A stretch of DNA of 63,565 bases, filler included, from Neolecta irregularis DAH-3 (GCA_001929475.1; 19 parts of 19 records of this genome joined end to end with filler, not necessarily neighbours in it); one strand, 5' to 3'. Counted from the first letter of the whole stretch, positions 12,434 to 58,362 are shown. Numbers and translations are program-made. The notes: a model not told the origin generated them from the sequence alone.

Positions 12434-13120
12434 ATGTTTCCAAACGTCTTCTGGTTGATTGCGCTTTATGCGCTTCATATTCTCGCTGAATCGGATTTCG
12501 TTCATTTCCTTGATCTTCATTTTATTGGTGTAACAGATCGTTATCCTAGAGAAAATTACCGATTTAGTGGGAAAATGAGCTCTTACAGTTTTCCTCCGAT
12601 ACAGAGCAGTTACGAAGAAGCAATAGACCAGTGTGCAAATGAATGCATCCTTGCGGAGTATATGTGCAATTCATTCATCCTTACAGACCACAACGGTGGT
12701 ACATTATGTCTGAAATTTGTAGCCACTGCATCAGATTTGAGCTGGCAAGAACATCAAGGTGAAACTAAGAAAATAATCGCAGTATATGAGTAAGAATTAT
12801 GACGGAATGGCAAGTTTTGACATTGTAGTCTCCGTGTGCCGCGAAAATTTGATATGCTACCAGTATTATCTAACGATATTGGAAAGAAATCAGAGGAGCA
12901 GTGGACCAATCATCTATTACGAGGATACGACCTGCATCCAGAAACTTACCTTGCAACAAGCCTTTACGTGCCTTTTCTACTCGGTTGCAGGAAGTCTGCG
13001 ATGTTTGGCCAACCATCAAAAGGAGTCGATTTTGACAGTTTGCTTGCCAAAGGGCTTATTTTGAAGAATCATATTCATGATCCGGAAGAACGACTACGCA
13101 AATACAGTCGCATATCTCGG
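12434..13120 (+). CDS. Secreted protein with PAN/apple-like Cys module (3' end cut by gap)
   Basis: Signal peptide MFPNVFWLIALYALHILA; EEAIDQCANECILAEYMCNSFIL..CLKF; phase-2 intron 12790-12828 joins the 12836 ORF. Confidence 0.7.
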
Positions 13121-13525
13121 NNNNNNNNNNNNNNNNNNNNNNNNNNNNNNNNNNNNNNNNNNNNTTAATTAATTAANNNNNNNNNNNNNNNNNNNNNNNN
13201 NNNNNNNNNNNNNNNNNNNNCTTTGTGTAATTCTTCTAGTTCAGTCTTAAGTAATATGCAGTCTTTGGAAATTGCACCTGCGATATCTCATCTTCGTCTA
13301 ATGAGATCCATGACCCTTGGATGCTGGGAGTGATAATGCAGGTGAAACCTGCTATCCCTCGCCCTGCACTACCGACCAGATCCTCTCCATCCTCGAAATC
13401 TCCCTGCCCTGCCCTCTTCATCCGTTATCGCCGCTGCAGCCGCCGGAGGCGCGCTTTGGCCCGTCCCCAACATTGGCTGACTATATGGTAATTCTTCCCC
13501 TTTTTCACTTTCCAATGGTGTAGCT

Positions 13526-14375
13526 CGATGCGATTGGAGCCGGGTCTATTCCTGCGGTTGGTAATCGAGATTGGGGTGAGCTATGGAATGAATTCGTGGA
13601 ACTCCAGGCCATCACGGATGAAATCACATGAGCAATCGCCAAATGAACAACTTGAGACTGATACACGAGAATATGCTACTCCCCTACTTAATCAACTTAA
13701 GGCTGTCTTTTCAAGGGCTAATCTCACATTTTGGCGATCGAAGATTATGGATTCACTCGGTAATAACTCCATTTTGGAAAAGGTTAATTTTCTAAAGTCT
13801 TTATGCATTTCACTGTCACTTTTCTAACTGGAGTAAATTATTGGAACATCGGGAACTCGAAGGATGATGTTCAATATGGATTCTAATTGTAATAGAGTCG
13901 ATTACTGGTTAATAAGCACAGATCGTTTACCTTCAATGGCCCAGCAGCATTACGGATTGCTCAAATCTTTGTCGATTTGCCCTTCGCCACCTTCCAGATT
14001 TTATGTGGTCATTCCTTTTCTTGACGAGCTCGCAGCTTTTAGGGCTAGTGGAAAAACCATAAAATTTTACCAAGAGAATCAAGAGCGGCAACGACTGAAT
14101 CAGGCTCTCAATGAAAAGAGAGCTCACAAAGTCAAGGGTAAGGAAAATGAATCTCAGCCCATTATCACGTCGAAGAAAACTCAATGGGAAAACATGAAAT
14201 ACGACGTTCCAGTCGCTGATGGTCAGAAATGATTGCTTGATGATATTTTTGGCTATGTCAAGCCTGGGCAACTCACTGCTTTGATGGATGCTTCTGGAGC
14301 GGGCAAAACTACGTAATCTCCCATTGTGGTGCTTCTCACTTACATGTGAGTCTTCTTGATGTACTTGCAAATAGA
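13526..14375 (+). pseudogene. PDR/ABCG transporter fragments
   Basis: 13526-13880: DAIGAGS..GNRDWGELW..EYATPLLNQLKAVFSRANLTFWRS..YGFTR..LTGVNYWNIG. 14040-14375: [50 protein letters not shown]. Stops and frameshifts. Confidence 0.85.
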
Positions 14376-14444
14376 GACCTGCAGCACTACTATTTTTATT
14401 TACAGCGCACCTGAGGATCATCGAGACAAGTTTTATTGAATCAA

Positions 14445-15382
14445 CGCAGCCCTCCTCGCCCGTTACCTCTCCACCCTACTCACCCGTTACTGTCCCGCTC
14501 AATACAGTCCACCCTCCTTGCCTGTTACTGTCCAGCTCAATACAGCCCACCCTCCTTGTCCGCTCTGCATGTGGCATAACAACTGATGACCCCACCTTGT
14601 TTCAAAATCGTTGTGCTCTCTGGTAGGATCTCAATAATGGGTACATCTACACTCTTCAAACTGAAACAAAAACTGAAAATCTTCTAGTTGGTTATATTTG
14701 TGAGGTTACGAATATCCCTCCTTACCCATTACTGCCTGCCCTCCTCACCCATTACCGCCTGCCTTTCTTACCTGTTACCGGCTGCCTTCCTTGCCCTTTA
14801 CCACCTGCTATCCTCGCCTGTTATCGCCCGCCTTCCTCGCCTGTTGGCTCTACATGGCTTCAGCTTCAGGTGCCTGACTGCATATTCTCTAGTGGGCAGG
14901 CCATTTGAGCGCAGGTCGGAGATAAAGTGGAAGAAGAAGACGGTGCAGGGCTGCAGGGTGAGGGAGATGGGGCCGCAGGGAAATAGGTGCAACCAGACTT
15001 GCAAATAAGTAAAACTTTCAAGTAGAATGTGCTTGCTTACTTGCTTTGTAAGCAAGTAAGCAAGCAAGTCCGGCGGACAAAAATTAGCAAGTAAGCAAGT
15101 CCAAAATTTAGACTTGCTTGTTTGGACTTGATAGACTTGACTGTTTAAGACTTTTAATGAGACATTTAATATTTTCTTAATACTGCTACCAAATATCATC
15201 TTCATTGTCGCAGGATACATTATCTTATTGAAATGTCAATGCCAATCGTCAATATGGATTCCGGCGATCTTACCACAAAAGATATTTCGACTTTTCAAGA
15301 CCGGACACACAATATCGGGCGAGGAGGGCGGGGCAGTAATGGGCAGGAGAGTGAGAGGAAGTGAGTAGGGGAGTAAGAGGAA
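14445..15382. repeat. Cluster of dispersed GC-skewed repeat fragments and a MITE-like hairpin
   Basis: CCCGTTACTG-type units; 14839-14878 matches the reverse complement of ~45000-45040; 15317-15381 matches ~53970-54035; perfect 17-bp hairpin at 15030-15066. Confidence 0.7.
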
Positions 15383-15482
15383 NNNNNNNNNNNNNNNNNN
15401 NNNNNNNNNNNNNNNNNNNNNNNNNNTTAATTAATTAANNNNNNNNNNNNNNNNNNNNNNNNNNNNNNNNNNNNNNNNNNNN

Positions 15483-15771
15483 AACGGTTCTGGTTGGGCT
15501 TTCTATTATTATACGCTTACTAGGTTCGACGACGCGGCTCATCATGTAGCTGCCTTTTTGTCAGGTTGGATAATGCTCTATCCATTTCGATGGCGTTTTC
15601 GCTAAGAATCGATTCCGAAGTTTATCAGAATCAAAACTCTACAACCAGAATCTCATAACCCATCTGTATCCAATATCCCATTGGGTCATAGTAAAACCTA
15701 ACCGCCGACCCCCGGCTGTTGTAGAGTATGGAGTCTTCAAATTGAATTGGATCTGGCATTCTCCAATCTAT
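15483..15771. repeat. Direct repeat, copy 1 (of 21479-21763)
   Basis: Near-identical ~285-bp sequence with a few substitutions and one short indel block. Confidence 0.9.
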
Positions 15772-16020
15772 TCGAGCGAGTGCGCATTTTCACAACATTC
15801 CATAGGCAGCCTCGGAATTTCATCAATCACAGCAAGCAGCTCCATCACCAAATACTAAATGTACTCTGGAAGTGGTACCAATATTTGTACCGTTGAATCC
15901 CTCGTGCTGTTACGTAGGTTGTCTATTGCAATAGAATCGGTTTGAAAATGTCTGTTTAAACTCTAGGATATATAGCTGTGATGCTAGGATAGGGTAACTC
16001 GATATATGATAGATACTTGT

Positions 16021-17094
16021 CTATTCCAACCCCTGATCGACGATGAGCAAATGACTAAATTCTTCTAGGGCAACAGGACCTCTGACTTCCTTTGTCAACA
16101 AGGGAACTTTAACGACGTGAAAATCCTGTGCGTAGAGTTCGATGTATTGTTCTAGGTACTTTCTTTGCATTTTGTATCTAGCTGAACATTGATCGCACGA
16201 GGCGTGTCTGACTAGTTGGTTCACGACGATGTTGTGGGTGTCGATGTGAAAAGAGGTTAAATCTTGAATCATGCGTTCCTGGGGTTAGTTTTGAAGAGGG
16301 AGGGGATACTGTTTCGTAGAGAGAGAGGAATTCGGAGATGCAGACGCATATGAATGTGGTCAAGTCGGGATTTGTGAATTGTTTGTTGACCTGGTTGATG
16401 GTTTCTCTCATTCCCTCTAATTTTTTGAAAACGTCGTCGGTGCCGTCTTGCAAGCCCATCATTCCGGAGACTTGATTCATCATGGGGCCTAGGCGGCCGG
16501 AGATACTTGATATTTTAGCGAGGGCTTTTTCTAGGACGGTGGGGAATTGGAGGAAGCGGAGGGTGTGGCCTGTTGGCGCGGTATCGAATACGACGACGGA
16601 GTATTCCATTGATTTTACCTGTTTCATTACTTCTGTGAAGGACATTGCTTCGTCGATGCCGGGGACGGCCATGCTTAGATCCTGCATTATATTGGACATG
16701 GGGTTTGAGGAATCTGCGCCGGATTGGATTATTTCCTGCAGGGACGAAGTGGAGTCTATTTCCTGCTTGTTAGAAGATCAGGGGATGGCGGACCATTGCG
16801 CAGAGGTTTGGCACGCCGTCTACTTTCCGTGCTTCTTTTCCGAATTTCTGGCCAAAGGCATCGGAGAGGTTGTGTGCGGGGTCTGTGGAGATGAGCAGGA
16901 CGGATTCTCTGGATTGTGCGAGCTGGATAGCGAGGGAGCAAGAGGTTGTTGTTTTTCCTAGGGTCAGCACGGCGGGGGCACAGCGTACCGACGCCGCCCT
17001 TGCCGCCGACGAATATCCACTTTAGGGATTTCTGCAGTACGACGTTCTGCAGGGTCGCGGGGAGGATTTGGTCGCCGGGAAGGGGATCGGACAT
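16021..17094 (-). CDS. GET3: ArsA/Get3 ATPase (tail-anchored protein targeting)
   Basis: [15 protein letters not shown]-loop split by an intron; [45 protein letters not shown]; 3 introns. Confidence 0.95.
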
Positions 17095-17130
17095 GGCAGA
17101 GGGTGGTGGAGATGTGTATATTACAACTAG

Positions 17131-17460
17131 CTACTCTGGCTGCAGCGTGCGCACCACCGCATTGACCTGCAGCACGCTTGCGAGCAGCCGCGCCCACGAG
17201 TCCTGGAGCGGGCGCAGGGCGGACTCGTGGGCGTGCAGCTGGGCGAGCTTGCGGGCGCGGTTGCAGGCGTCTGTGGAGGCGCGCAGGGCGTCGAGCTGGG
17301 CGTCGAGGCGGCGGCAGAGGGCCTCCTGGGCGGCGGCGGCGGCGATCCAGGCGCGGGGGCCGTGGGCGGCGAGGAGGGCGAGGTTGTCGAGGCGGGCGAG
17401 CAGGTAGGTGGAGAGGACGGCGGCGGTGCGCAGGGCGGCGGGCGAGGGCAGCGGCGGCAG
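17131..17460 (-). CDS. cwf7: Pre-mRNA splicing factor SPF27/BCAS2/Cwf7, 3' part (5' end in N gap; missed by ORF track)
   Basis: Manual translation ..STYLLARLDNLALLAAHGPRAWIAAAAAQEALCRRLDAQLDALRASTDACNRARKLAQ..LRPLQDSWARLLASVLQV..* fits the BCAS2 pattern (NL.LL..G..AW...N..RK..Q...L...W). Confidence 0.75.
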   Translation of the reverse strand: MPPLPSPAALRTAAVLSTYLLARLDNLALLAAHGPRAWIAAAAAQEALCRRLDAQLDALRASTDACNRARKLAQLHAHESALRPLQDSWARLLASVLQVNAVVRTLQPE

Positions 17461-17557
17461 GNNNNNNNNNNACGACTAGGTATAGGTGCAATCCTGAATT
17501 CACCAAAACATAATTGCTAATATAAAATGATTTCTAGCTGGCCATTTCTTTAGTTAG

Positions 17558-17997
17558 TGTAAGTATGTTGCATGTACAAAGTTCCGTCGTGATCGCACTG
17601 TCACATGATCCGCGACAAATCTTGCGAGCAGAGCTTGGCAAAGGCAATCACTCCACAGCTATACAACCAACCAACAGATTCAAACGAAACGACCACTATC
17701 GGGATCAGAATTTAAAGGCGAAACTAAATGTCGGCCAACAAATGTGGGTGGTTCAGATCTCTTGGGGGTCGGGAGGCTTAGAAACCAGTCGAACAGCCCG
17801 TCGGCGGGCGGTTTCACTCACCGGCTCTAAGAACTTTAGTTCTTACCAGACACGTGATAGAGGTTGTCGGAGTGGCAAGTATATAAACGAGCGGGGTTAC
17901 GCTGCGATATCTAACCAAGTACAATCGCTTAGGTTAAAGTACAATTACTTAGGTTAGAATATACCGGGTCTTGATCGTATTTCGGCGATCGCTTACA
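17558..17997 (+). mobile_element. Solo LTR-like repeat (TGTAAG...CTTACA)
   Basis: Terminal inverted hexamers; interior matches 5915 and 31375; no TSD seen. Confidence 0.7.
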
Positions 17998-18200
17998 CCT
18001 ACGAATCTACCCAAAACTGCAGTTCACATGTTTCAGGGTCACTAATTGTAATATTTCGGTCACGAGGGCGTTGTCACACGAATATAATGCTAGGAGAAAA
18101 AGGGGTGGTGGCAGTTGGTGATAGAGGATAGGCAAAATGTGTCATGTGCAATGGTTCTGCTGAAGAGACTGTTGCGATATTTCGGATGAAGGAAGGTGTG

Positions 18201-18467
18201 TGTAAGGGTATACAGTTTGGTATACCTCACACGCATAACATAGAAAAGGGGTATACATATTTGTATTCCTTAAATGCAGGGCAAGGATGAAGCAAGGTTA
18301 TCGCGCAGGAACATTGCAATATTTTAAAGAGTATACAAGGGAAGCGGATAAGGACTATCTAGCTAAGATTCTCGTATCTTAAGCTAGGTATGTCCCCGTT
18401 GAAGATTCTCGTATCTTAAGATAGAAATATATCCTAGTCTTATTTGTACTGAGATCTCACTCTTACA
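18201..18467 (+). mobile_element. Solo LTR with 5-bp target-site duplication
   Basis: TGTAAG...CTTACA ends flanked by GTGTG (18196-18200 and 18468-18472); related copy at 49141. Confidence 0.85.
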
Positions 18468-18806
18468 GTGTGCCTTTTGTTAATGACTTCCAGAGTCTGC
18501 TGATAGGAAATGAGGGAAGCAGTGGCAAAAGATAGGGGTGATGAGCAGGGTGTGGAGATTTGATTCGGACGGTGTTGCGCATTGCCGGAAATAACCGGAC
18601 TACGTTACAAAGGACTGGATGTGATACTGCAAACCAATCGAATAACAAACCGAAACAGCGTTCCTAGCGAAAATGCAATTTCATCTCTGCCGCCTAAATT
18701 CCCTCGTGAGTGTACTATTGAAAGAAAGTTGTTTGAGTCGATAACTCAATTATCCGGTCAGGCTGTACTGAAAAGTATAAAGGGTCGCTCAAAGTTTTAA
18801 ACAGCA

Positions 18807-21428: not shown

Positions 21429-21478
21429 ATTGCTGGAAACTGCGTTTTAAGATGCGAATATAAGCCTGTCGTAGAAAA

Positions 21479-26401: not shown

Positions 26402-28440
26402 CTACAACTTGGCCTTTTTCAACATCTCTGATTGAAACATAACCCTCAATTCATCTGCTGCATCCTTCAAATAAAACTGCATGCGATGATTGTCTAGGTG
26501 TTTTGAAACAATGTTAAAGTTGATGCTATCCTCATTGATCATGTATGCAATACCATATCCATCAGCAACAACTTCGCCCTTGCAGGTCAGAAAACGTGAA
26601 AAAAGAAATATACCCATCCATAGCCAATGAAATGTTCAGAAGATAATTGAGAAGTACTCAGAAACCAATGGCTAGAATAGGAATATGCTGGATCTGAGAA
26701 GATTTCTGGAATTGGCTCATCTGGCTTTAATAATTGCTTCAATCCAAAAAGATGCCGATCAACGCCTTTACCCTCCGATGCATCCGAGATGTACTTTACG
26801 TGAGCGTTGATTGCCTTGCGACAAAGGTCGATAGATTCTTTAGTACTGACGTTGGGATCACACATTGCTTTGCAAAAGGCGACGCTTTCATCCGAGACGG
26901 TTCGACATGTTTCCGTTCGACCTAGCTTAAATCGACGGGTCGCAGCCGATTCATAAGTAGGCCGACTCACGCCATACATTTTGTAATAGGCTAATTGTAT
27001 AATCATCTGTACATATGCGTCTGGGGAGCATTTCGCCTTTTTGATAAAGGCTTTGCCGTAGCCCTGGTATTGCTGAACTCGCAGATCCTGCTCGGAGATG
27101 AGTGTTTTAAAGTTTTGTTTGGCCTGATCAATTGAAGCAGAGACTTGTGGGGTGACTGTAAATTTCAGTTCCTTGGGCGGTGGTAATGATCTATTGATGG
27201 ATCCATGGTCGACTTTGTTATTGAATAAAACATCACAAACGTAGTCGTTGAGTCGATGGGTGGGCGTTCCGTCCATCATAGAATGCTCGCCCAGAAAGCC
27301 AGAAACACCATTTTCAAATATAATAAATTGCAGAGGTTTGTCGTAGAAGCGATTCTGGCCGTCTCCGTGCCAGCATTCGCGGCCTCTCTCTTCGAGGGTG
27401 ACTGGAGCCGTTTCGTCGAGGCAAACAAGAAAGGATGCGGACTGAATTTTTTCGAGGAGAGCTTTGTTGTCGGGCGAGGCTTTGAGGAGAATCTCTCGAT
27501 ACTATGGAATCAGTGGATCCCAGGCAGCACGAGCATGCCTTTAGCCATAGATCACGGTTATCGCTGGTCAAGGCTCCGATGGCGGGGCCTTGATTTTCTC
27601 CGGCAGCTTGCATGATATTCCTGAACTGGCTCTTCAGCTCCTCTGTACTCAACTGCTTCCCGTCAATGTCATGCTGGACGGCAAAGAATCTGTTCTTCCG
27701 GACAACGATGATATGCTTATTTGCCGATTTATCGTAAATTTCGGAATAATCCGAGGTTGCACGAGGCAAGCGACAAGCATTAAACATCCACTTGTACGAC
27801 TCCATAGACAGGGGCACGCCCCTCATGTGCTCTGGCTCCAGGGATTTCTCGTCTACCATCTTCTTGAAGCAAAGGGCGGCGGTGGTGATTGCAGCGGCGC
27901 GGTCAACCTGGTCTCTGCGCCGCCTGTCGTCCTTGTGGGCATAGAAATAGCTGACAAAGACCACTACAGGGTGTCTGTAGGCCATGTAAGCGTTCAGGTC
28001 CCACCACTCGGCCAGCCAGTTGGACACTTTCGGATCGCGCGACCGCTCTTGCAGGCGTTTCTGCAGCTGCTCGCCGGGGCCGCCGGGCGTGACAAAGCTG
28101 CGGACGGCGGCCTCTGTGTGCGCGAACTCGCTGGGCGACAGCAGCGGATGCACGGTCTGCAGGTATTTCGCGGCAGACTCGGCGAGCGGCGGGACGGGCA
28201 GCGCGGGCAGCGCGGCCTCGAAGCGCAGCATGGGGCGCTGTGCGGGGTCTTCGCGGCAGGAGCTGGAGCGTCGCGCAGCCATGGGAGTCTGGGGCGGGTT
28301 GGCATGGCGGCGGGCGGGCCTACCTTTGAGAACAACGGGCGCGGGACAGGCGGGCGATGGCCTGTTGAGAACACTGGGCGCAGGACAGGCGGGCAATTGC
28401 AGTTTGAGAACACAGAGGCGCGCAGGAGGACACGCAGCAT
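26402..28440 (-). CDS. CAT2: Carnitine O-acetyltransferase, dual mitochondrial/peroxisomal
   Basis: LPALPVPPL, NWLAEWW, NRFYDKPLQ, catalytic GEHSMMDG, SPDAYVQ, TYESAATRRFKLGRTE, LSTSQ; C-terminal AKL (PTS1); Arg-rich upstream exon from 28440; second ATG at 28282. Confidence 0.93.
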
Positions 28441-28757
28441 GCAGAAAGGCGCCGGGTGACGGGCGGCAGGGCCGGGTGCAGGCGGCGACGCGGCTTTTAA
28501 GCACGCCCGGGCGCCGGCGCTCATGTGATAAAGCCTGCTCCCGCCGCACTACTCCTCCCAAACACGCACCGCACTACAGCGCGGCAGTCACCGCTTTTTG
28601 CGCGCACTCTTGCGGCTGCCGCTCTGCAGAAGCCGCGCCGGCGTCCGGGCCGCCGCCNNNNNNNNNNNNNNNNNNNNNNNNNNNNNNNNNNNNNNNNNNN
28701 NTTAATTAATTAANNNNNNNNNNNNNNNNNNNNNNNNNNNNNNNNNNNNNNNNNNNN

Positions 28758-38028: not shown

Positions 38029-38148
38029 NNNNNNNNNNNNNNNNNNNNNNNNNNNNNNNNNNNNNNNNNNNNTTAATTAATTAANNNNNNNNNNNNNNNN
38101 NNNNNNNNNNNNNNNNNNNNNNNNNNNNGGCAGGCAGCAGGCCGCGCG

Positions 38149-38873
38149 GGTCGAGGCCCGTGCCCGCCCCGCTGCCCGCCTGCCCGCTGCGGCCGCGCTC
38201 TTCTGCCATGCCCCGCTCCACGCCGCCCGGCGCTGCTGCTGCTGCTGCTGCTGCCCACCCGCTGCAGGACCCGCTGTCTGCCGTATTCCCCGGCCTCTCC
38301 TCCGACCCGGTCCCGGTATCCGTCCCGGTATCCTTATCCTCCCCGGTCCACGTATCCTTATCCTCCCCGGTCCAAGTATCCTTATCCTCCCGCACATCCT
38401 CCCCGGTCCCAGTCGAATCCTCGCTCTGCCACCCCCCACTAACCCCCGTCTTTGTCCACACAGTCCTCAAACACGACTCCCTCCCCAAAATCCTGCTGGC
38501 CTACAACATCGACGCCGCCCACCTCCGCAAGGCAAACGCCCTCTGGCCGTCAGACTCCATCTTTGCCCGCTCCGTCCTGTTCCTCCCCGTCCGCCACTGC
38601 AACATCCCCATCCACTACATCGCCCACGACCTCGCCCTCGTCCCCACCATCGGCCCCGTCCCCATCCGCTCCCTCCCCACCCCCTCCTTCTTTCCCCACA
38701 GACCCACCCTCTTCCCCCCAGACGCCACAGACGCCCCCCCGCGCGAAAGCATCGACAGCGACTTTTCAATCTCCTCTCTCGGCGGCTACGTCCAAGACAA
38801 ACTCATGACCGTCTATCGCCGTTTCACAGGCGACTCCACAGAATGGACCTGCACAGATTTGATTGAATTGTAG
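38149..38873 (+). CDS. Non-secreted-type LysM-domain protein (5' end uncertain, next to gap)
   Basis: HTVLKHDSLPKILLAYNIDAAHLRKANALWPSDSIFARSVLFLP LysM motif after a Pro/Ser repeat region. Confidence 0.8.
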
Positions 38874-41134: not shown

Positions 41135-43553
41135 TTATAAGCGTGCTCCGCGTGGATCTGCGCGTTGGAGTTTAACGCCCAACCATAACGGTAACTCGCA
41201 ATACCTCGAATCGATAAACGATGCATCACAAGAAATATCAACGACCGTCGTTTCTAGATATTGAACAAGTTCCGGAAATTCAAGTTGAATGAATTTATAA
41301 ACGTCAGAAAACTAGAGTCAGTTTCATAAAGAGGAAGAGTACAAGTAAATAGTGTAATTTTAAATTTTCGAATTTGTGTTTTTCGAATTGTTGGAGGTGG
41401 TACATTATTTCTAGGAACGAGGTGCTTGAGGAAAGCAGAGGGGTGGTATTTGAGAAGAGAGTGAGGGCTTGCGAGGGAGTCAAGTCGTGCAGGTAGTAAC
41501 ACGCCATTGCGTTCAACGTCATCCATAAACAGGATTGTTCAGTTCTGGAAATGGAGAGGAAGGGGATATTTCGTACTAGAGTCAACTTTGAATAAATTGT
41601 AACGCACGGAAAGAGGACAGTTGGTCGATTGGGATGTTGAAAAGCCATGCTAGGTGGATGTCGACAATATACTTTTCACCGTTTTTCAAAATAACGTACA
41701 ATGGTAGAAACTTTTTAATTTCTTCAATTTTGGGAGGTTTCTTTGAGGGCGTGGACAGGTCGTCGAAATTGCGGGTGGTCGAGGGACTCGGACTGGGTAG
41801 AGGATTGTTCATTTCTGGAGGAGATTGCAGGCGAGCGGGAGGAGGCAAGGGTGCATTTTCGGCGATTGGGGGTAATGGTTTTACGATTGGAGAATCCGTT
41901 TCGGAGGATTCCCTAGCCAAGTCTTTTCCAGAAATGAGTCTACGTTTTTTGGGTTGCGGTTCGGATACGGATCGTTGTGGTTCGGGATCCGGATTCTTTT
42001 TAGGACGACCACGTTTACGTTTGGGAGGATCGATGCCGTTTGGAGTAGCTGGGTTTATGGGCCGGCGTATTTTTGGTGGGGGAGGGTTAGGGTCACTCCA
42101 CTTTAGAAATTCGCCAACCGATTTACGCAGGTACTTTACTTCTTCGACTTCTGTGCCAATTTCAGCAATGGCAATTTGTTCGGGCGTGTCTCCGTTGCTA
42201 TTCCTCAAGCTTGGATTTGCCTTGTTGATTATTAACAACTTTACGACTTCAAGTTGTCCACGGCCAACCGAGTCGTGCAAAGGGGTATTCCCGTCTTTTG
42301 CAGGGAAATTAGGATCAGCGTCGAAAGCGAGGAGAAATTCGACGACGCAAAGGTGGTTGTGTCGAGAAGCGAGATGCAAAGGGGTACGGCCTTCAATGTC
42401 TGCAACATTGGGACTGGCACCTCCTTCGAGCAAACGGCCGACCATCTCTATATCGCCCTCTGATGCCCATTTATGTAGATGTGTGCGGCCTTTCGCGTCT
42501 TTTTGCCGGTGGTCGAGCCAGAGGATATCGTTTCGGGTATGTATCCCTCGACCACGTTTCCCGAGCTGTTCGTGGTGGTGCGAGGCTAGAAGAGGGGGCG
42601 AATTCAATTTATTTTTTCCTCTGAATTGGTGAAGAGCTCTGCGTAGCAAATTTGCGATTTCGCCGTCACCAGACTCGTTGACGACGTCGAGGGGAGTTTC
42701 GCCAGAGGAGTTTGCACAGCGTGGATCTGCATGATGTTCGAGCAGTGTTTTGACGACCTCGAAATGGCCGTTTGCGGCAGCGTCGTGCAAGGCAGTGTCG
42801 TCTTTCAAGCCGCGGGAATCGACGTCTGCTCCATTCTGCAGCAAGAGTGAGACGATATCGATGTGTCCGGCGAGGGAAGCTTCGTGGAGGCTGGTCCAAT
42901 TTGCGTTGTCTTTGGCGTTGACTTGGGCGCCGTTTTCGAGCAGATGCTTTGCGTCGAGCAGGTTTCCAGTATTTGCGGCTCTATGTAGGGGAGTCTGGCC
43001 TGCTTTATCGCGGCTGTTTACTCTGACAAGACGGTCTCTGCGATCCTGCAGCAGATGCAGGATGTGTGGATTTTTGGTGACGTCGAGGGGGGATTGGGCG
43101 TCGTTGTTTGTGAGCAAGGGGTTTGCGCCCGCGTTGAGGAGGATTTTTACGGCGTCGATATGGTCGTTCTGGGCGGCGTCGTGGAGGGGGGTGTCGCCAT
43201 TGTCGCCCTTGACGGAGACCTTTGCGGCGTATTTGACGAGCAGCTGGATCAGATCTGCGTAGCCATTGAGGGCGGCGACGTGCAGGGGGGTAGTGCCTAC
43301 GTTGTCTGAGACGTTTGGGTCTGCGCGGGCCTGGAGGAGTTTTTCTACGGAGAAGTGGTCGGCCCACTGGACATAGCGAAAGAGAAGCGACTGGCCGCTG
43401 CGGTCTTGGATGTTTGGGTTGCGCAGGTCTGTGTCTTTGAGCTTGCGGATGGACTGGCCGGGGTGGGTGCTGCGGGAGCTGGTACTGCCGTTGGGGGAGA
43501 CGGAGCGACGGGAGGGCGGGAGAGAGAGCGGGTCCAGCGGGTGAGAGAGGGGG
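41135..43553 (-). CDS. Ankyrin-repeat nuclear protein with AT-hook (Hos4-like inferred); 5' end in gap
   Basis: Many ankyrin repeats (GQTPLHRAA, NWTSLHEAS, GRTPLHLAS, GNTPLHDSV); KRKRGRPKK AT-hook/NLS; two short 3' introns. Confidence 0.8.
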
Positions 43554-43689
43554 NNNNNNNNNNNNNNNNNNNNNNNNNNNNNNNNNNNNNNNNNNNNTTA
43601 ATTAATTAANNNNNNNNNNNNNNNNNNNNNNNNNNNNNNNNNNNNNNNNNNNNAGGATATAAATAGTATCAATATAGGATATAAATAGT

Positions 43690-43848
43690 ATTATCCTGTT
43701 ATGGTGGCCCAGAGTTTTGAATAGGCTATGAGCCATGTGGAAAAAAAAGCCCACCATAACCCATGGGCCAGTCCAGGAAAAAACCCATGGGCCGGGCCAA
43801 ACCCTCAAAAAACCCCATGGGTTGGGCTTTAGCCCATCCCCAACACTG
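43690..43848. mobile_element. hAT-like MITE end (..CAACACTG) with CCCATGGG subterminal repeats
   Basis: Same terminus and similar subterminal motifs at 54085-54190; the terminus also occurs at 44991 and, in similar form, at 53442. Confidence 0.55.
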
Positions 43849-44301
43849 GTCAGAGAGTCCAATCGCTGGGAGCGGAAGCACTACTAACTTCCCAAGTAAG
43901 AGATCTATGATAGTAGTTGAAATAACCTGAGACTGAGATGAGAGTTGGAGGCAGCTTGTGGGCGTAGAGGCATCCTAGAGCTGTCTCGAGAGTAGGAATC
44001 TATGGGGTTGAAAGTGAGACACGTATTAGAAAAGTGTTCAGAAGTGACAATTTCACCGGCTCTGCAACACCCCCATGAACCAATTACTGTAGGGACCAGC
44101 CATCCGGATTAGCTGATGGCGTCCTAACACATACACCATGTGACAGGTGTGAGACAGGGAAAGACAAAAGTGTAAGAGTCTGGAATGTGTATAAAGCGGG
44201 TCTGGAATAGTATGTACAACTAACAAGTTTTCCCTATTGGTACAGTGCCTGCTCAGCTTTTATCCACACAAATTATACCCAACGCAGATACAACCACTCA
44301 C

Positions 44302-44783
44302 ATGTTACCAAAACTCTTCTTGCTCTTTCTGTCCTTGGCAATGGGGCATTTCACCGACATCACAAGTTAATATCCAAATACCGACGTCTACTACGTTGGT
44401 CGGCGCGAACTATCCAAACTATTTCACACGGGCAAAGCGGACGAAGATGATGCAATAGATTTCTGTAAAAGGAAATGCCTTGAGGCGAAACCTTTCTGCA
44501 AAGTTTTAATGGTTACTCAAGTCTTATATGTTGATGGTTTTGACACCACGGGCGCAACCGAGGGGAGTTTTCAGTGCGAAATATTTGGGGAGCCGATATC
44601 ACAATTGTCCATTCATGATGACGATGACAGTGACAATGGTCCACTAAAGATATTCGAGTAAGTGTTTGTGACTGAAGGTGATTTTAATAATCTAGGCGAG
44701 AGACTGAGGAGACAGCTGAGGTTCGATCCAAGTTGCACAAGGCAAAACACTATGGTGACCTCGAGATCATTGCACACAATTAA
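44302..44783 (+). pseudogene. Secreted PAN/apple-like family member with premature stop
   Basis: MLPKLFLLFLSLAMG signal; TAA at 44368-44370; frame continues DDAIDFCKRKCLEAKPFCKVLMV..QCEIF; phase-2 intron 44658-44695. Confidence 0.7.
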
Positions 44784-45430
44784 TAATACTCAAATGTATG
44801 TTGTCAAAGGTCAGGTTTTGTTTTTGTTTAAATGTTTATGTACGTTCCGAGTTAGCTTTTCTTGAAAGTAGTCAATGCAACCTCAATATCCAGTTATGCA
44901 TGGTATGTGCCTCCAGATCATATTATATCCATCATATTAATATCGTCATATTATTTATATTGCGTAAAATGACAGTGGCACAGCCCTCTCCAACACTGGT
45001 CAGGCACCTGAAGCCAAAGCCATGTAGAGCCAACAGGCATAGCAGTATAGACANNNNNNNNNNNNNNNNNNNNNNNNNNNNNNNNNNNNNNNNNNNNTTA
45101 ATTAATTAANNNNNNNNNNNNNNNNNNNNNNNNNNNNNNNNNNNNNNNNNNNNTAAATAGTTTTTATACCTTGAAATTTCAATTTTGTATAAAAACAGTC
45201 GCTTGTTGCGTGTCAAATCCGAATTTTATGAAATTCGGTCCAAAAAAGTGGCTGCAAAATGCGTTCTTTGTTGTTTATTGAACACACTCACTCCCACATG
45301 AATCTTATCATCTAAGCATTGAAACATCAATTCTGGTTCATTTTAATTTCATATTATTCTTTGTCATTTCGAATCTGTTTCATGATCTAACCCGCGAAAC
45401 CCTTCGGGATATATCCACATTAGATATTAT

Positions 45431-46288
45431 TTACGAAACCACATTAGGAGACAATTTGTTTGGTAATCTCGATCTCTTTTCCAAAAAAGGCTTGCCAAGA
45501 CGGGACTCCTCATAATTGAAAGGTATAAACTTAATCGTGTTGGACGGGAGTACAGACGAGGATCTTGGTTTTCTTATTTTCGAAGAAAGCTTGCTACGAT
45601 GGTAGTCCTTATCACTGAAAGGTTTAAATTTCAATGTTTTGGGCTGGAGGACAGAGGAGGAACTTGGTTTTCTTATTTTCGAAGAAAGCTCGCTAGGTTG
45701 GTAGTCCTTTTCACTGAAAGGTATAAATTGAATCGTCTTGGGCTGGAGGACAGAGGAGGAACTTGGTTTTCTTATTTTCGAAGAAAGCTCGCTACGTTGG
45801 TAGTCCTTTTCACTGAAAGGTATAAATTGAATCGTGTTGGGCTGGCGGACAAAAGAGGAACTCGGTTCTCTTTTCTTAGGAGGGGAGTCCTTATTTCTCA
45901 CCCCTGCGAATCCGATATCGGCTTTTTCGCGGCGTTGCATTGCTTTGCTGGTTTTACTCCAATCTACGTCTCCGGGTGATAATAAATCCTTTTCGTCTTT
46001 GGGAATATTTCGCACCTGTTTCGGAAGAATGTTTTCGGCCCATATCTGAGGTGAATCATATCCCGCGTTTCGTGCAAATTCTGAGATTTTATTCCTGGTG
46101 TCCTGTTCGTAGTGTTCATATTTTGAAGGGGGTTTCGGGGAAAATAATAACTTGGCAGAGGATTTTAGGATTCTTTGACGCTTATAATAGCCAGGCTGTG
46201 TCAAAGCCATATTTTTGTTCCGGACTGCCTCACAACCATCGAGTATAACGGCAATGATTTTGAAGCAAGGCCCATACATACCCTGGAT
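45431..46288 (-). CDS. Lineage-specific protein with ~3.5 tandem 33-aa repeats (5' end in gap)
   Basis: 99-nt unit (KPSSSSVLQPKTIQFIPFSEKDYQ.SELSSKIR); paralog at 51965-52346. Confidence 0.65.
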   Translation of the reverse strand: MQGMYGPCFKIIAVILDGCEAVRNKNMALTQPGYYKRQRILKSSAKLLFSPKPPSKYEHYEQDTRNKISEFARNAGYDSPQIWAENILPKQVRNIPKDEKDLLSPGDVDWSKTSKAMQRREKADIGFAGVRNKDSPPKKREPSSSFVRQPNTIQFIPFSEKDYQRSELSSKIRKPSSSSVLQPKTIQFIPFSEKDYQPSELSSKIRKPSSSSVLQPKTLKFKPFSDKDYHRSKLSSKIRKPRSSSVLPSNTIKFIPFNYEESRLGKPFLEKRSRLPNKLSPNVVS

Positions 46289-47514: not shown

Positions 47515-47562
47515 TTCGATATACTATTCTTGGATTTATTCTTAGATGGATTCAATCTAGAT

Positions 47563-51964: not shown

Positions 51965-52346
51965 TTAAAAGACGACTTTTTTTAGCAAACTCGGCTTCAT
52001 TTTGGAAGGCTTGCTAATAAGGGCGTCCATATAATTGAAAGGAACAAATCGAAACGTGTTGGGCGGGAGTACAGGTGGATTTTCTCCCGTATGTAAACCG
52101 ATGTCGGTGTTTTGGTCGGGTTGCATTGATTTGCTGGTGTTTCGCCAATCTACTTTTCCGGGTGAACGTATTTCATTATCGAGGGCGGGAATTTTTCGCA
52201 CCAGCTTCACAAGACGTGTTCCAGCCCAAAAATCAGGTTCTCTCCATCCCGCTCTTCGTGCAAATTCCGTGATTATACTTATTGTCTCGAGTTCAAAGGC
52301 TGACGGGGTTTCCTGGGAAAATAATCTCTCCACAGATTTTCTTAGG
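51965..52346 (-). CDS. Paralog of the 45431 protein, C-terminal part, single repeat unit
   Basis: EFARRAG..W..VRKIP..SPGKVDWRNTSKSMQ..DIG..VLPPNTFRFVPFNY aligns with the 45431 ORF. Confidence 0.65.
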
Positions 52347-52446
52347 NNNNNNNNNNNNNNNNNNNNNNNNNNNNNNNNNNNNNNNNNNNNTTAATTAATT
52401 AANNNNNNNNNNNNNNNNNNNNNNNNNNNNNNNNNNNNNNNNNNNN

Positions 52447-53210
52447 ACCCGCCCCGCCTCTCCCGTTTCGCCGGCCCCTCCCGCCGCTCCTCCCATCACT
52501 CCCGCCACTCCAGTTCCGCCCATCCCTCCCGCCTCTCCCATTGTCCCTCCCGCTGCTCTCGTTCCGCCTGTCCCTCCCCCTGCTCCCTTTCCGCCCAACC
52601 TTCCCGTCCCTCTAACCCCTCCCATTCCACCCATCGCTCCCATCGCTCCTGCCTCTCCCGTTCCGCCTTTCGCTCCCGCCTCTCCCTTTCCGCCTTTCGC
52701 TCCCGCCGCTCCCATTCCACCCATCGCTCCCGCCTCTCCCGTTCCGCCAATTCCGCCCGCCCCTCACACCTCTCCCGTTCCGCCCGCCTTTCCTGTCCGT
52801 TCCACCCGCCCGCCCTTCCTGTCCGTCCCACTCGCGCACCCGTCTCTCCCGTCCCCGCCGCCTGCCTTTCCTGTCTGTGCCACCCTCCCACCCGCTCGCT
52901 CATCTTTCTCTCCCGCCCGCCCGCTTACCCGTCCCTCCCTCCCACCTGCCCGCTCGCCCGTCTTTCTCTCCCGCCTGCCCGCTTACCAGTCCCTCCCTCC
53001 CGCCTTACCCGACTTTCCCTTGCCTGTCTCGCTTGCCTGTCTCTCCCACCTGTCTCTCTCGCCTCATCTACCTGTCCCTTCCACCTTACCTGACCCTTCC
53101 ACCTTGCCTGTCCCTCCCACCTGTCCCTCCTGCCTCTACCACCTTGCACACCTGTTTGGCCTGTTTGGCCCACCAGTCTTGCCCACCTTACCCACCCCCA
53201 CCTGCCTGTA
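52447..53210. repeat. Pyrimidine-rich GC-skewed low-complexity tract
   Basis: CCCGTTCCGCC / CCTGTC-type degenerate units; strong C+T bias on the + strand. Confidence 0.7.
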
Positions 53211-53579
53211 AGTTCCCTTGTAAATATTTAGATAGATATAAAGAATTATATACACAATATAGTAATTTATACTTGCTTTTTAATATATTCCTGGTTTATC
53301 TCCTCTACCAGATTATGCAAGTGGCTAATTAGGATTCAAATAGTCAAATTGAGTCAATAAACCAAATCAAACCAAATGATACCCCTCCTAATCAAACCAA
53401 ATCAAATGGAAGTCCAAATTTTGTTTGAATTGATTTGTTAGGAACACTGTTATGCATATCCCCAATACTGCAAATACATTGTTGCTATAACCATTTGCTC
53501 AAAATGATTGACTTTATATTTTGGAAGGTAGATTAGAAACTTAGACTATTTAGACATTTCTGACCTAACAGTTATGCAG

Positions 53580-53835
53580 CTGGGTTTTTCAGTGAAAGTC
53601 CTTGTTTGATTGGCTCAAACCGCATTCCTGTGGCTGAAAACGAGGCGTTTTATGGCTTTTACGGTAAAAAACCTACAGTAAAAGTCCCAGCCATGGGAAC
53701 TTTCACTGAAAAACCGCAGTTTTGGGAATTTACAGTAAAAAACCCAGAACTTTCACTGAAAAACCCGCAGTTTTGAGAATTTACAGTGAAAAACCTGGAA
53801 CTTTCACTGAAAAACCTGGAACTGTCAGTGAAAAA
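53580..53835. repeat. Subterminal-type tandem and inverted repeats (ACTTTCACTGAAAAACC / TTTACAGTAAAA)
   Basis: Multiple direct copies plus one inverted copy at ~53582-53600. Confidence 0.65.
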
Positions 53836-54194
53836 NNNNNNNNNNNNNNNNNNNNNNNNNNNNNNNNNNNNNNNNNNNNTTAATTAATTAANNNNNNNNN
53901 NNNNNNNNNNNNNNNNNNNNNNNNNNNNNNNNNNNGGGAGCAGTAACGGGCGAGGAGGGCAGGCGATAATGGGCGAGGAGGGCGGGGCAGTAATGGGCAG
54001 GAGAGTGAGAAGACGCGAGTAGGCGAGTAAGAGGATGCAAGCAGAGCCTTTTCCATGTCTAAATCGCTACAATCTGATATCACGTGATACGGCCCATTTG
54101 GCCCATTGACCATGGGCCGGGCTATTTCCATAGTCCAGTCCATAGACTTTTAATGGACTGGATTAAGCCCATGGTCCATCCACAACACTGGGGG

Positions 54195-54600
54195 GGATTA
54201 GTATGCCGGCCGCCTGCCGGAAAAATCTGATCTGTGCGCCCGCCAGAGCCTCTCTGGCAGGTGGGGCCTCTCAGGCCGGATTTTTATGCCTCCCGCCTTC
54301 ACCAAGAGATCCAACCATCCACCTGGAGAATGCTCTGGCAGGCTGCTAGGTTGTATGGCGGTTTGGTAGTTTCCTCCATGTGATGTTTCTTCAAAGGTCC
54401 CCTTTTGACTTTCTTGGATTGAATTTGTTGGTAGACCATTAGTTTTGCCTTTAAATTTGATCCCTATAGTGTTTGTTTCGTTTGAATACGTTGGTTGGTT
54501 GTTCAACTGTGAATTGATTGTCATTTGCTCAAAGACTCGCAAGATTTGTCACCGATCACGTGACACAGTGATCAGGATGATACGACATCAATTTTGTCAT
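54195..54600 (-). mobile_element. LTR-like repeat, reverse copy of the TGTAAG/TGTCACGTGA family
   Basis: Reverse complement reads TGTCACGTGATCGGTGACAAATCTTGCGAG..CAACCAACCAACGTATTCAAACGAAAC, like 17599 and 31424. Confidence 0.7.
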
Positions 54601-54828
54601 CAATGAAAGAAATGGCCAGATAGAAATCATTTTATGCTAGAAATTTTGGTTATTTAGTGAATATTGTATTGCACTTATCCTAATTGTCAAAAACGGAGAT
54701 AATTGGAACCATAAACTAAAATTCTCAAGCCACACCACGGAACCGAAACATCGTGTCATTTCTATGGATACAGAGACAAATATTAATGGCAAACATGGGT
54801 ATAAGTTTCAGCGTAACCAATCAACCTA

Positions 54829-54987
54829 TAGTCGAACCTGTTATAACGAATGTAGTGCTCAAGGGTGTTATGGCGATTCGTTCTATCACGATGAAAAAAT
54901 ACCCCTCTAATTAATTCTGGAAATCAGTTGGGTTCGTTGTAAGGAGGAATTCGTTGTATGGAGGTTCCCTAAAGCCAGGTTCGACTG
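54829..54987. mobile_element. Tc1/mariner-type MITE
   Basis: TIR (T/C)AGTCGAACCTG...CAGGTTCGACTG, flanked by TA on both sides. Confidence 0.8.
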
Positions 54988-55098
54988 TACAGCTACTACG
55001 GAACCGATACACCCTGTCTCATTCTATGGATACCACAGAGACAATAAGTTAATGGACCCTGGTATAAGTTTCAGCGAATTCCGTCAATCGTTTACATC

Positions 55099-56685
55099 AT
55101 GCAGTTCAGTCATATTCTCCTGCTTCTCGCACCATACGTCATTGCGACAAACTGGTTGGATCTATACACCCCAGCCCAGGATGGCGGCATGTATCGTGAT
55201 ATCCCGGCCATCTTGATCAAGAAGTTATCCTATGTTGTACCATTGTACAAGCAAGATGCAGACTACTTGGCAAGTTGGAATTCAGCCATCCAGTTTTGCG
55301 CAAAGGCTTGTACGGAATTAACTGAAACCCACGACCCATGCCATTCATTCCAAATCGAATTTCCTACTGTATCAAGCACCCCCGAGCGCATTTTTTCATG
55401 CAACACTTTTCGTCTGCCAGTAGCGCGAGATCTCGATTCGCAAGTCGTTGAACCATCTGAAACTGAAAACATAGCGCGTGTTACCTTTACGTACCTTTTA
55501 TTCTCTGATTTACATTAATCATCTAGCCTTGCCGATACCAAATTCTTTATTCCGGAATTTGAAAACAAGCTATATCGCGGTGTTTACGATTTCAATACCT
55601 GGATAAATAACCTCGGTCCTACCTACAATATACACCTAGACCGTTGGAGTAGCAAATGGAAACATAACGATATTTTACATCGACATCTTTATCCAACCTT
55701 TCCAAGCCGCTTTCTACCTAGTCGTAATACACATCAAATCATGCAGGCTCTATCGACTTTAAGAGAACAAAACTCTTCTCCAGTGTCTCATTTCGAAATT
55801 CTTTCAAGTTACTTGCCGATATTGGCATCGTTCATCGATGAAAAAGATGGAGAATCGTTTTCAGTAACAGTGGGAAAGAAAACGATGCGACTTTATTCAG
55901 TATCCTGGGTAGGCGGACCGATAACATATTACTTCATTTTCGGTGTTCGCGAATATACTTTTCAGCATCAAGGAAAGCAAATGGGAGTACTAGGCTTGTT
56001 TGTAGCTCAAAAACAGACAGAGGGCGCTTTTGCTGATCAATTCTGGCCAAGCAGTTTCTACTTTCCCACGATTGGTGAAGAAATCCCGGAACCAATACGT
56101 AATCAAATTCAAAGCGATTTCATCTCTTTTCTCCAAAATGCTGTTCCGTCATCATGGGAGCTGTCCCAATATGCTCCGCTATCTTCTCAAGTCTATTTCA
56201 CTTTCTGCCAGAATGGGTCGACTTACGGTTTCATATTATTCTTGATCCAAAAAGTCATACCTGGATTTTACAGTGTGCGCGGCGACGGTTGTCTGCTACT
56301 TCAAGACTTGGTGATGAATGCTTTGGGAAAGGTATATGGAATCGCCGCACGCGATCTGGACCGGGGTATGCCGCGTCTCAATCCACCGTCAACTTTTAAA
56401 GCAAAGTTGAGTGATATCACGATTATGACTTCTGAAACTCAAGAGAATGATATCACGATTATGACGTCTGAAAGTCAAGAGAGTGAAACTGAATTAATGA
56501 ACGATTTAGACATTGCTCAAACTGAAATTACTTGGCCGATTTTCATCAATAATGAACTAGAAGGCATTACACCACCCGATGATGTATCCTTTGAAAATGG
56601 ATTCTGGTTTTCCTCTACGATTGAAGCTTTGACTGCGCATACTGATCATAATCAAGTTGTCTTGAAAATGACATTCAATTCATGA
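55099..56685 (+). CDS. Secreted protein, N-terminal PAN/apple-like module plus unknown C-terminal domain (~516 aa)
   Basis: Signal MQFSHILLLLAPYVIA; NSAIQFCAKACTELTETHDPCHSFQI..SCNTF; phase-2 intron 55491-55526 joins in frame to the 55741 ORF. Confidence 0.75.
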
Positions 56686-56883
56686 TGACGAGTGGTCTAT
56701 CTTTTGAAATACAATTCAATATATTTCTAGTATAAAATTCCACGCGTCCACCCATATCTATCATACTCATATTGCTATCATTTCTATCATACCTTCATAT
56801 TTCTATCATACTCATTGCTAACGATCAATATCATACTCATTGCTATACTATCAAATCATACTCATATTGCTATACTATCAATA

Positions 56884-57681
56884 CTACCATAATACCCTGG
56901 CACCCAAAGATTCGTAACTTTTTGAAAAATATTCATCCAAGAAACCTTGTATAGTGGATTCCAACAAATAATCTATATCAGCGATATACCAGGTACTGTT
57001 TTTCCAGTCTGTAGTTAATCTCACATAAACATCTCTCCTTCCGTACAGACCGTCAAAGGAGACGTCTAATTTGACATCGACTAGTTGCTGCACATTGGTT
57101 TGTATAGTGGAAACCTGGTCGTACACGTCCTCCTTCCAGCTGGCAAAAGTGGGGAGCTGGGGCATATGAACGAGTGCAGTTGCGTAGGGGAGGTAGAGGA
57201 GAAAGAGCATGTGGTTGTCGATGTGCAGCTGGTCCAGCTCCTGTCTATTTCGGGACTGGACGAAGGCCCAGTAGCGGGGATCGCCGATTCTTGGTTTGTC
57301 GTAGACTATTTTGGCGGAGTGGATGTGGCGGAGGGCGATGTGCGGGCGGGGCAGGGGGGCGAGATGCGCGGCGTATTCGGGCGTGGCGAGCGCGGCCAGG
57401 GGAGCGTTGCGGGCGTACTGGTGGGCGAAGTGCGAGAGGGCGAGGATGGCGCCGGCGTGGATCTGGGGATAGTCGAGGGCGGGGATGAAGGGGGGCCGGG
57501 CGGAGAGGGAGCGCGGGGGGCGGCCGGCGAGGATGTCGATGCAGGACGCTGCCGAGTTGAGCAGGCACATGTAGGGCGTGCTGATCCGCGGGTAGCTCGG
57601 CGGGCCGGTGACGGGCGTCGCCGCGAGGAAGCGCGCGGCCGCGCAGGCCGAGAAGGCGCGGCTGCGGGACCGGCAGCGGGG
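56884..57681 (-). CDS. Hypothetical protein with very GC-rich 5' part (start in gap)
   Basis: 228-aa ORF with coding-like composition; family not recognised. Confidence 0.55.
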   Translation of the reverse strand, partial: PRCRSRSRAFSACAAARFLAATPVTGPPSYPRISTPYMCLLNSAASCIDILAGRPPRSLSARPPFIPALDYPQIHAGAILALSHFAHQYARNAPLAALATPEYAAHLAPLPRPHIALRHIHSAKIVYDKPRIGDPRYWAFVQSRNRQELDQLHIDNHMLFLLYLPYATALVHMPQLPTFASWKEDVYDQVSTIQTNVQQLVDVKLDVSFDGLYGRRDVYVRLTTDWKNSTWYIADIDYLLESTIQGFLDEYFSKSYESLGARVLW

Positions 57682-57781
57682 NNNNNNNNNNNNNNNNNNN
57701 NNNNNNNNNNNNNNNNNNNNNNNNNTTAATTAATTAANNNNNNNNNNNNNNNNNNNNNNNNNNNNNNNNNNNNNNNNNNNN

Positions 57782-58362
57782 TACGTCTATCAAGACAAGC
57801 TTGAGCACAAGAATCATGATCATAAGAGTCCTGAATTTCGAACAATCTTGAGTTTATAGCTTCATCTTCGTCTTTGGACACCACCACAAGCTGTTCAAGG
57901 GGAATAATTTCGAAATTGTTTTTAAGTATCAATTGATCAACGATAGAATTTTCCAGAAAATCCGTGGAAAGCTTATATTGCGCAACATATTGCAGTTCTT
58001 TTGCCAACAAAAAACCATCAGGGCTCTGAGGACGATCAGGAATGTTTGATAATAACTGACAATAAAAATTTTGGAACCATGCAGTTGGCTGATTCTTCTT
58101 TTGCGACATTTGGAAAGCTTTGCAAGATTCTGGATGATATCAATCAAGTGTCTCGAATGGAGATCGTACCAGTTTTCATGCACAGTTGAGCACAGCGATC
58201 ATGAGCCGATCCTTCCACAATATCGGAGAATGCGGAGTCAAGAGCCGCAGCGTTACTGGGGGAAAGAAGAGTATGAGATTCTTCATGAACAAAGAAGTCT
58301 TGTAGAAAGTGGGCTCCAGCTATCGAGATGACGGCATAAAAGAACAAAAAAGCGTGTCCCAT
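57782..58362 (-). CDS. Secreted protein with tandem PAN/apple-like modules (3' cut by gap)
   Basis: Signal MGHAFLFFYAVISIAGA; intron 58130-58169 yields DRCAQLCMKTESCKAFQM..FYCQLL; a second module starts DSCAQACLD. Confidence 0.75.

Follow-up and report, generated by a model that had tools for sequence, protein, structure and literature searches.

Three genes in a stretch of DNA from Neolecta irregularis DAH-3 (assembly GCA_001929475.1; 63,565 nucleotides, hereafter the window) appear to form a small protein family of Neolecta (Taphrinomycotina), in which a putative secretion signal and a PAN-like cysteine module are followed by a conserved mini-intron and by C-terminal parts that are unrelated to one another. 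We put the probability of this reading at roughly 60%. The three genes start at positions 12434 (gene 1), 44302 (gene 2) and 55099 (gene 3) on the plus strand. A preliminary description of the window had joined to them a fourth gene, starting at 58362 on the minus strand, and had interpreted all four as one dispersed and expanding family of secreted PAN/apple-like proteins with exchangeable C-termini. Judged from their sequences, genes 1 to 3 constitute what we regard as a real family of paralogues, which is small, lineage-restricted and uncharacterised; gene 4 is considered separately below.

All four named positions are ATG codons, each followed by a hydrophobic N-terminus, and the peptides that had been quoted for genes 1, 2 and 3 were recovered verbatim on the plus strand at 12614-12676, 44446-44508 and 55279-55350. 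A search of all six frames with the pattern C-x3-C-x(4-10)-C-x-[SAV]-[FL] yielded three matches, which were exactly genes 1 to 3; block shuffles gave a mean of 0.4 matches for the same pattern, and one of 200 shuffles reached three. The cysteines are located at residues 67, 71, 78 and 92 in gene 1, at 55, 59, 66 and 92 in gene 2, at 67, 71, 81 and 101 in gene 3 and at 57, 61, 67 and 88 in gene 4, so that all four genes contain the core pattern C-x3-C-x(5-10)-C-x-[AS]-F with a fourth cysteine further on. The loop between the third and the fourth cysteine comprises 13 residues in gene 1, 25 in gene 2 and 19 in gene 3. Putative signal peptides, delimited by eye, carry a small residue at position -1 in all four genes and at position -3 in genes 2, 3 and 4, with an isoleucine at this position in gene 1. 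Going by these N-termini, the gene products would be secreted.

The gene models of genes 1 to 3 follow a common layout. Exon 1 extends over 12434-12789 in gene 1 and over 44302-44657 in gene 2, with an identical length of 356 nucleotides, and over 55099-55490 in gene 3 (392 nucleotides). In each case it encodes the hydrophobic N-terminus and the four-cysteine module, whose core lies at 12632-12709, 44464-44577 and 55297-55401, respectively, and it ends in phase 2. The introns that follow are predicted at 12790-12828 (39 nucleotides, GTAAGA..TTGTAG) in gene 1 and at 44658-44695 (38 nucleotides, GTAAGT..ATCTAG) in gene 2, and that of gene 3 lies at 55491-55526 (36 nucleotides, GTACCT..ATCTAG). 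In agreement with the preliminary description, they are phase-2 introns placed 27, 27 and 30 codons past the fourth cysteine. Exon 2 of gene 1 (12829-13120) consists of 97 open codons running to the contig end; it is incomplete and matches no family. A possible exon 2 of gene 2 (44696-44783) encodes a charged tail of 28 codons ending in TAA, a length at which an open frame carries no weight as evidence. Exon 2 of gene 3 (55527-56685) comprises 385 codons and a stop codon and matches no Pfam family; the spliced product of this gene has 516 amino acids.

The splice of gene 3 uses the same junction (..FTFT/LADTKF.., the slash marking the junction) as the N. irregularis protein model OLL24614.1. 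The 97 open codons past the intron of gene 1 argue for splicing of this gene as well, and the 28 codons past the intron of gene 2 are no argument either way. Introns of this size are normal in the genome, because a GH18 chitinase gene of the window needs the removal of a 35-nucleotide intron (9089-9123) for its DWEHPG/RLG junction to be restored. By codon usage, the proposed frame was the best of six for all exons but the 22-codon piece of gene 2 that encodes the signal peptide, according to a score for which 3780 codons from conserved genes of the window served as training set and which is rough and biased by the absence of stop codons.

Similarity between the genes was evident in two of the three pairs. 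BLASTP gave expectation (E) values of 4e-5 for genes 1 and 2 and of 6e-4 for genes 2 and 3, and Smith-Waterman scores compared with 500 shuffles gave z 6.8 for the former pair, with none of the shuffles reaching the observed score, and z 5.0 for the latter, with one of 500 doing so. Genes 1 to 3 are therefore taken to be paralogues linked through gene 2, because their similarity exceeds that of shuffled sequences and because the phase and the place of the intron are common to them. A hidden Markov model (HMM) built from the three genes found no other member of the family among 1465 six-frame open reading frames (ORFs) of the window, the next-best match having an E value of 1.8, and no further copy of any of the four loci was detected in the window by blastn.

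In a search of 1.84 billion representative sequences with a profile of the three modules, six matches at E<=1e-3 were obtained. The single match at E<=1e-10 (P0001, 99.4 bits) was a hypothetical protein of N. irregularis DAH-3, NEOLI_003725 (OLL24614.1, 520 amino acids). The other five were long repetitive proteins; four of these were scanned and contained no PAN family, and the fifth (P0004) was read. One credible relative, from N. irregularis itself, thus bears out the description of the family as lineage-specific, and as far as the collections searched reach, the family appears confined to Neolecta. NEOLI_003725 is annotated as hypothetical only. It has the exon junction of gene 3 and is identical to it at 117 of 132 residues (89%) in exon 1 and in 299 of 401 alignment columns (75%) in exon 2, so that the module of gene 3 is closer to this protein than is the tail; on these figures OLL24614.1 is read as the orthologue of gene 3. 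No counterparts of genes 1, 2 and 4 were found among database proteins. Word-indexed protein searches with exon 1 of gene 1 among proteins of near length and with its exon 2 among longer proteins were likewise empty, which is weak evidence.

The C-terminal parts, with at least 97 residues in gene 1, possibly 28 in gene 2 and 385 in gene 3, had been described as lacking visible similarity, and this was upheld. All-against-all BLASTP revealed none among them, the best value for exon 2 of gene 1 against OLL24614.1 being E 0.066, and Pfam searches identified no family, including CBM1, and no other known domain. For none of the tails did BLASTP, Pfam or word-indexed searches reveal a source or a use elsewhere. 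In an AlphaFold2 (AF2) model of OLL24614.1, residues 241-345 were moderately confident and formed a beta-meander with a helix. Comparison of this region with known structures by VIA-align gave the OrfX1-OrfX3 complex (Z 5.8), P47 (Z 5.0), SPLUNC1 (Z 4.9), a StART-like domain (Z 4.8) and lipocalins (Z 4.4-4.5), all of which remain under the noise level (7-8). That the gene 3 C-terminus might have a lipid-binding-like fold is only a lead. Shuffling of exons would be compatible with the symmetric phase-2 boundary that precedes the tails, of which one is incomplete and one very short.

The module of genes 1 to 3 probably adopts a PAN-like fold. A C-x3-C... pattern defines the core of PAN domains. 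With PAN/apple domains (PAN_1 PF00024, PAN_2 PF08276, PAN_4 PF14295), such as the N domain of hepatocyte growth factor (HGF), the module shares the arrangement C-x3-C-x(6-9)-C-x-[AS]-F...C and the predicted order of elements, which in the AF2 model of the gene 1 module, with a predicted local distance difference test score (pLDDT) of 46, was strand-strand-helix-strand-strand. It differs from them in that the outer disulfide of apple domains is absent, in the longer loops between the third and the fourth cysteine of genes 2 and 3, and in scores that stay below thresholds. PAN_2 was the sole Pfam domain near its threshold with a matching cysteine pattern. When the profile of the three modules was searched against PDB sequences, the best match was the N (PAN) domain of HGF at E 0.39, with the first three cysteines aligned. 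In Foldseek searches with the low-confidence gene 1 model, HGF or plasminogen made up 12 of the 46 listed rows, at E values of 1.8-3.8, and none of the matches reached E<=0.001. The PAN/apple identity that had been proposed is suggested by several weak signals in mutual agreement, and no test reached its threshold of significance. The family is not classed as a member of PAN/apple, since the curated cut-off, when applied, was missed.

A number of results weigh against the reading of genes 1 to 3 as one family with a PAN-like module. Genes 1 and 3, compared alone, are not significantly similar (BLASTP E 0.74; z 1.8, reached by 33 of 500 shuffles), and the profile search detected no N. irregularis protein resembling gene 1 or gene 2 among the 1.84 billion representatives. 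All four gene models were derived from the DNA sequence alone; the introns of genes 1 and 2 are predicted only, and their unspliced ORFs end at the in-frame TAA of the donor GA/GTAAG. Codon 23 of gene 2 is an in-frame TAA (44368-44370). As to the fold, Pfam PAN_2 scored 13.3 bits with gene 1 (E 0.093), below the gathering cut-off of 21.1, and no Pfam PAN match was obtained for gene 2, for exon 1 of gene 3 or for OLL24614.1. Single-sequence PDB searches gave PAN matches for none of the three genes; the top matches, none of them significant, were to a fragment of an E3 ligase, to a designed repeat and to a subunit of a dioxygenase. With gene 1, the ten best named clusters of the ESM Atlas all belonged to PAN_1/PAN_4 families at a score of 0.93, which speaks for a PAN-like module but is to be read against scores >=0.9 in 4-10 of every 100 shuffled proteins, with agreement of all ten clusters in one third; the whole of OLL24614.1 scored 0.75 at best and gave no lead. 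The AF2 models had a pLDDT of 46 for the gene 1 module and of 42 for OLL24614.1. Structural alignment of the gene 1 model with the HGF N domain by VIA-align (Z 3.5, root-mean-square deviation 3.1 over 54 residues) was inside the noise, and a de novo mini-protein scored Z 4.5.

DNA contigs of two public runs (X1 and X2) were compared with the 1.4-kb contig of the window that carries the gene, in identity classes of >=85%. Position 44368 reads A, giving AAA (lysine), in 788.5 of a summed depth of 1685.6 in X1 (two contigs) and in 107 of 107 in X2 (one contig), and T is retained in one X1 contig whose sequence is an exact match to the window. Since the stop rests on this single T/A difference, with AAA in other contigs, it seems to be an allelic or copy-specific change which is not present in every copy. 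The copy in the window itself is read as broken by a nonsense codon or as a null allele. In total, 183 contigs of X1, which may be the window's own sample, and 49 contigs of X2 matched the gene 2 contig, variants that may derive from paralogues, from repeats or from other organisms. Summed depth on the gene 2 contig rose to 32,626, compared with 295-767 for exactly matching contigs; many of the X1 variants cover the 5′ end of the gene, with a depth of up to about 7,000 over the signal-peptide codons, whereas the module is covered at about 800-900. In several contigs the match runs as far as 44364 and resumes at 44438, with differing letters between. This pattern suggests that further diverged copies and repeats may exist around gene 2, and the variant contigs over the locus would lend indirect support to the earlier statement that the family is expanding.

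Two further differences or repeats were noted on the contig of gene 2. One X2 contig joins 43895 to 43932 and lacks the 36 nucleotides between (43896-43931), which start with GTAAGA and end with CTGAG; the presence or absence of this segment, which has the size of an intron, is a difference in the DNA itself and falls within a region (43889-44029) where summed depth is very high. The other is a 40-nucleotide inverted match of 95% identity between 44999-45038 and 14839-14878, on two contigs and at a place where read depth is very high; it is probably a dispersed repeat.

Gene 4 is encoded on the minus strand. Its exon 1 (58170-58362, 193 nucleotides, phase 1) encodes the hydrophobic N-terminus and the first two cysteines of the PAN-like core; it is followed by an intron of 40 nucleotides (58130-58169, GTACGA..ATCCAG) between the second and the third cysteine, and by an incomplete exon 2 (57782-58129), which completes the module with Cys 67 and 88 and continues through a linker into the beginning of a second C-x3-C (Cys 172 and 176). 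The peptide that had been quoted for this gene does exist on the minus strand as a motif; it is not contiguous and appears only after the GT..AG intron (58169-58130) has been removed, which restores the frame and the sequence C-x3-C-x5-C-K-A-F. One module could be confirmed of the tandem modules that had been ascribed to the gene, and of the second only 11 residues (D-H-D-S-C-A-Q-A-C..) are present up to the end of the contig at 57782. The ORF at 56884-57681 on the minus strand was considered as a continuation of gene 4 and rejected, as a contig spacer lies in between. Compared with genes 1, 2 and 3, gene 4 had z values of 2.4, 2.1 and 1.7, with 15, 24 and 41 shuffles out of 500, respectively, scoring as high, and the HMM of the three genes matched its cysteine core only (10.5 bits, E 2.8e-5 in a search of one sequence). 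Exon 2 had no Pfam match, and no homologue was found among longer proteins in a word-indexed search, which is weak evidence. With such z values, and with a phase-1 intron inside the motif in place of a phase-2 intron after the module, the inclusion of gene 4 in the same family is not sustained; it is a separate gene in which there is at least one PAN-like core, and it may be no more than a distant relative.

These data bear on three other explanations. The module might represent a novel fold with four cysteines and without homology to PAN/apple, its cysteine spacing having been acquired by convergence, in which case genes 1 to 3 would be Neolecta orphans encoding small secreted cysteine proteins. 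Every PAN-directed test remained below its threshold, the profile found no PAN protein at E<=1e-3 among the 1.84 billion representatives, and the AF2 model was not confident; set against this, the independent weak signals from the PDB profile, Pfam, the ESM Atlas and Foldseek all point to the PAN superfamily and to no other, and we consider a non-homologous fold unlikely. It might also be that gene 3 alone works and that genes 1, 2 and 4 are decaying duplicates or assembly fragments, so that there would be no active family with swappable tails. Such a state would account for the in-frame stop and the 28-codon tail of gene 2, for genes 1 and 4 being incomplete at contig ends, for gene 3 alone having an annotated orthologue, and for the wealth of high-copy variant sequence on the gene 2 contig. 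It is at odds with the open and coding-like frames in both exons of gene 1 (118 and 97 codons) and of gene 4 (64 and 115 codons), and with the stop of gene 2 being a single T/A difference that reads AAA in other X1 contigs and in the single X2 contig covering this position. Moreover, annotation often misses small secreted genes. We hold this explanation to be improbable.

The explanation nearest to the preliminary description, in which all four genes make up one expanding family of effectors or adhesins built by exon shuffling, draws on the cysteine core and the signal-peptide-like start of gene 4 and on the variant X1 contigs over the 5′ end of gene 2. It conflicts with the shuffle scores of gene 4 and the position and phase of its intron, and with the failure to find a donor for any C-terminal exon by BLASTP, Pfam or word-indexed searches; Neolecta is not known as a pathogen, which also counts against effectors, a role that has no support in what was observed. 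We regard this explanation as very improbable indeed. A small family of genes 1 to 3 with a PAN-like module and unrelated tails is accordingly the reading that we prefer.

The arrangement of the loci along the window has no bearing on this reading. The window contains 18 identical N44-TTAATTAATTAA-N44 spacers, the first three at 4291-4390, 7690-7789 and 13121-13220, and one gap of 10 N. Draft contigs are commonly joined by means of a spacer that carries stop codons in each of the six frames. The spacers split the window into 19 short contigs of 1.1-6.8 kb each, and the four loci are located on four separate ones (7790-13120, 43654-45053, 53936-57681 and 57782-62350). Because the window is a chain of contigs, the order of the loci, their distances and their nearness to gaps are biologically uninformative, and the earlier characterisation of the genes as dispersed, lying in accessory segments and beside gaps is an artefact of concatenation, as the identical spacers reveal. 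Any other findings on this window that rest on gene order, distance or gaps need re-reading, since the contigs are unordered. The overall G+C content of the window is about 42%, and its conserved genes, which include GH18 chitinases, thymidylate synthase and carnitine acyltransferase, are eukaryotic.

Some further features of the window were recorded. Two GH18 chitinase genes, about 77% identical, lie in tandem at 8587-9878 and 10114-11416 on the plus strand, and gene 1 is on the same contig and strand. Numerous contig ends are rich in G+C, for example 16931-17461, 28000-28657, 38129-38870, 43005-43553, 52447-53300 and 57245-57681; they translate into Pro/Arg/Ala-rich sequence in several frames, and the assembly seems to break there. 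These ends may be genuine low-complexity DNA, repeats or chimeras. The ORFs at 45431-46288 and 51968-52390, both on the minus strand, have in common a Ser/Lys-rich repeat of about 30 residues and are 40% identical over 122 amino acids; the former matches no Pfam family. An ORF of 302 amino acids at 62586-63494 on the minus strand has a hydrophobic stretch resembling a signal peptide, repeated AGIQK-type motifs and no Pfam match, and may be a candidate for a secreted protein.

The most likely role of the module in genes 1 to 3 would be that of an extracellular binding module. Exon 1 would encode the secretion signal together with a module of about 80 residues with the pattern C-x3-C-x(6-9)-C-x-x-[FL]...C, in which the first and fourth and the second and third cysteines might form two nested disulfides that clamp the helix onto a small sheet. 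Once secreted, the module could bind a glycan of the cell wall or a protein and, when bound, could tether or target the variable tail at the hyphal surface. Wall proteins with PAN modules that are known from fungi and oomycetes act in this manner. A more far-reaching version, in which Neolecta would have a genus-specific, multi-copy family whose signal and PAN-like exon was joined through the phase-2 mini-intron to unrelated domains by exon shuffling, with paralogues diversifying past the signal peptide and a role in wall or adhesion in the one lineage of Taphrinomycotina that forms complex multicellular fruiting bodies, seems doubtful to us. No paper joining Neolecta and the PAN domain was found in the literature searched.

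Two kinds of known proteins may serve for comparison. Ss-Sl2 of Sclerotinia sclerotiorum, the nearest functional precedent considered here, is described as a secreted protein which has two PAN modules and accumulates on cell walls, and which is required for the consolidation of interwoven hyphae into a multicellular body (PMC3338822). According to this description, it resembles the Neolecta proteins in that PAN or PAN-like modules are the recognisable part of a secreted fungal protein, and it offers a plausible model for a fungus that forms fruiting bodies. It differs in having two modules and in belonging to a distant class of ascomycetes, and the likeness is one of description, the Neolecta proteins being known from their genes alone. 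CBEL proteins of oomycetes also carry PAN/apple modules. Proteins of this type are described with respect to their CBM1 modules and cellulose (PMC3532174). As far as that account goes, they are, like the Neolecta family, modular proteins that combine a binding module with other parts, and they are secreted, which is a prediction for the Neolecta proteins. They come from a different kingdom, and their PAN modules are paired with CBM1, which is absent from the Neolecta C-termini as judged by Pfam.

The N. irregularis assembly is reported to comprise 14.5 Mb with 44% GC and 5,546 predicted genes, RNA is reported to have been sequenced too, and Neolecta is described as being studied for its complex fruiting bodies inside a subphylum of mostly yeast-like fungi (PMC5309816). 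For now, the result is that a module of a kind already known gains a few hypothetical proteins. If it is true that the module exon recombined with unrelated tails by way of a phase-compatible mini-intron, the family would represent a rare case of domain shuffling in fungi. With the precedent of Ss-Sl2, as that protein is described (PMC3338822), putative secreted PAN-like proteins restricted to Neolecta would be reasonable candidates for roles at the hyphal surface or in adhesion.

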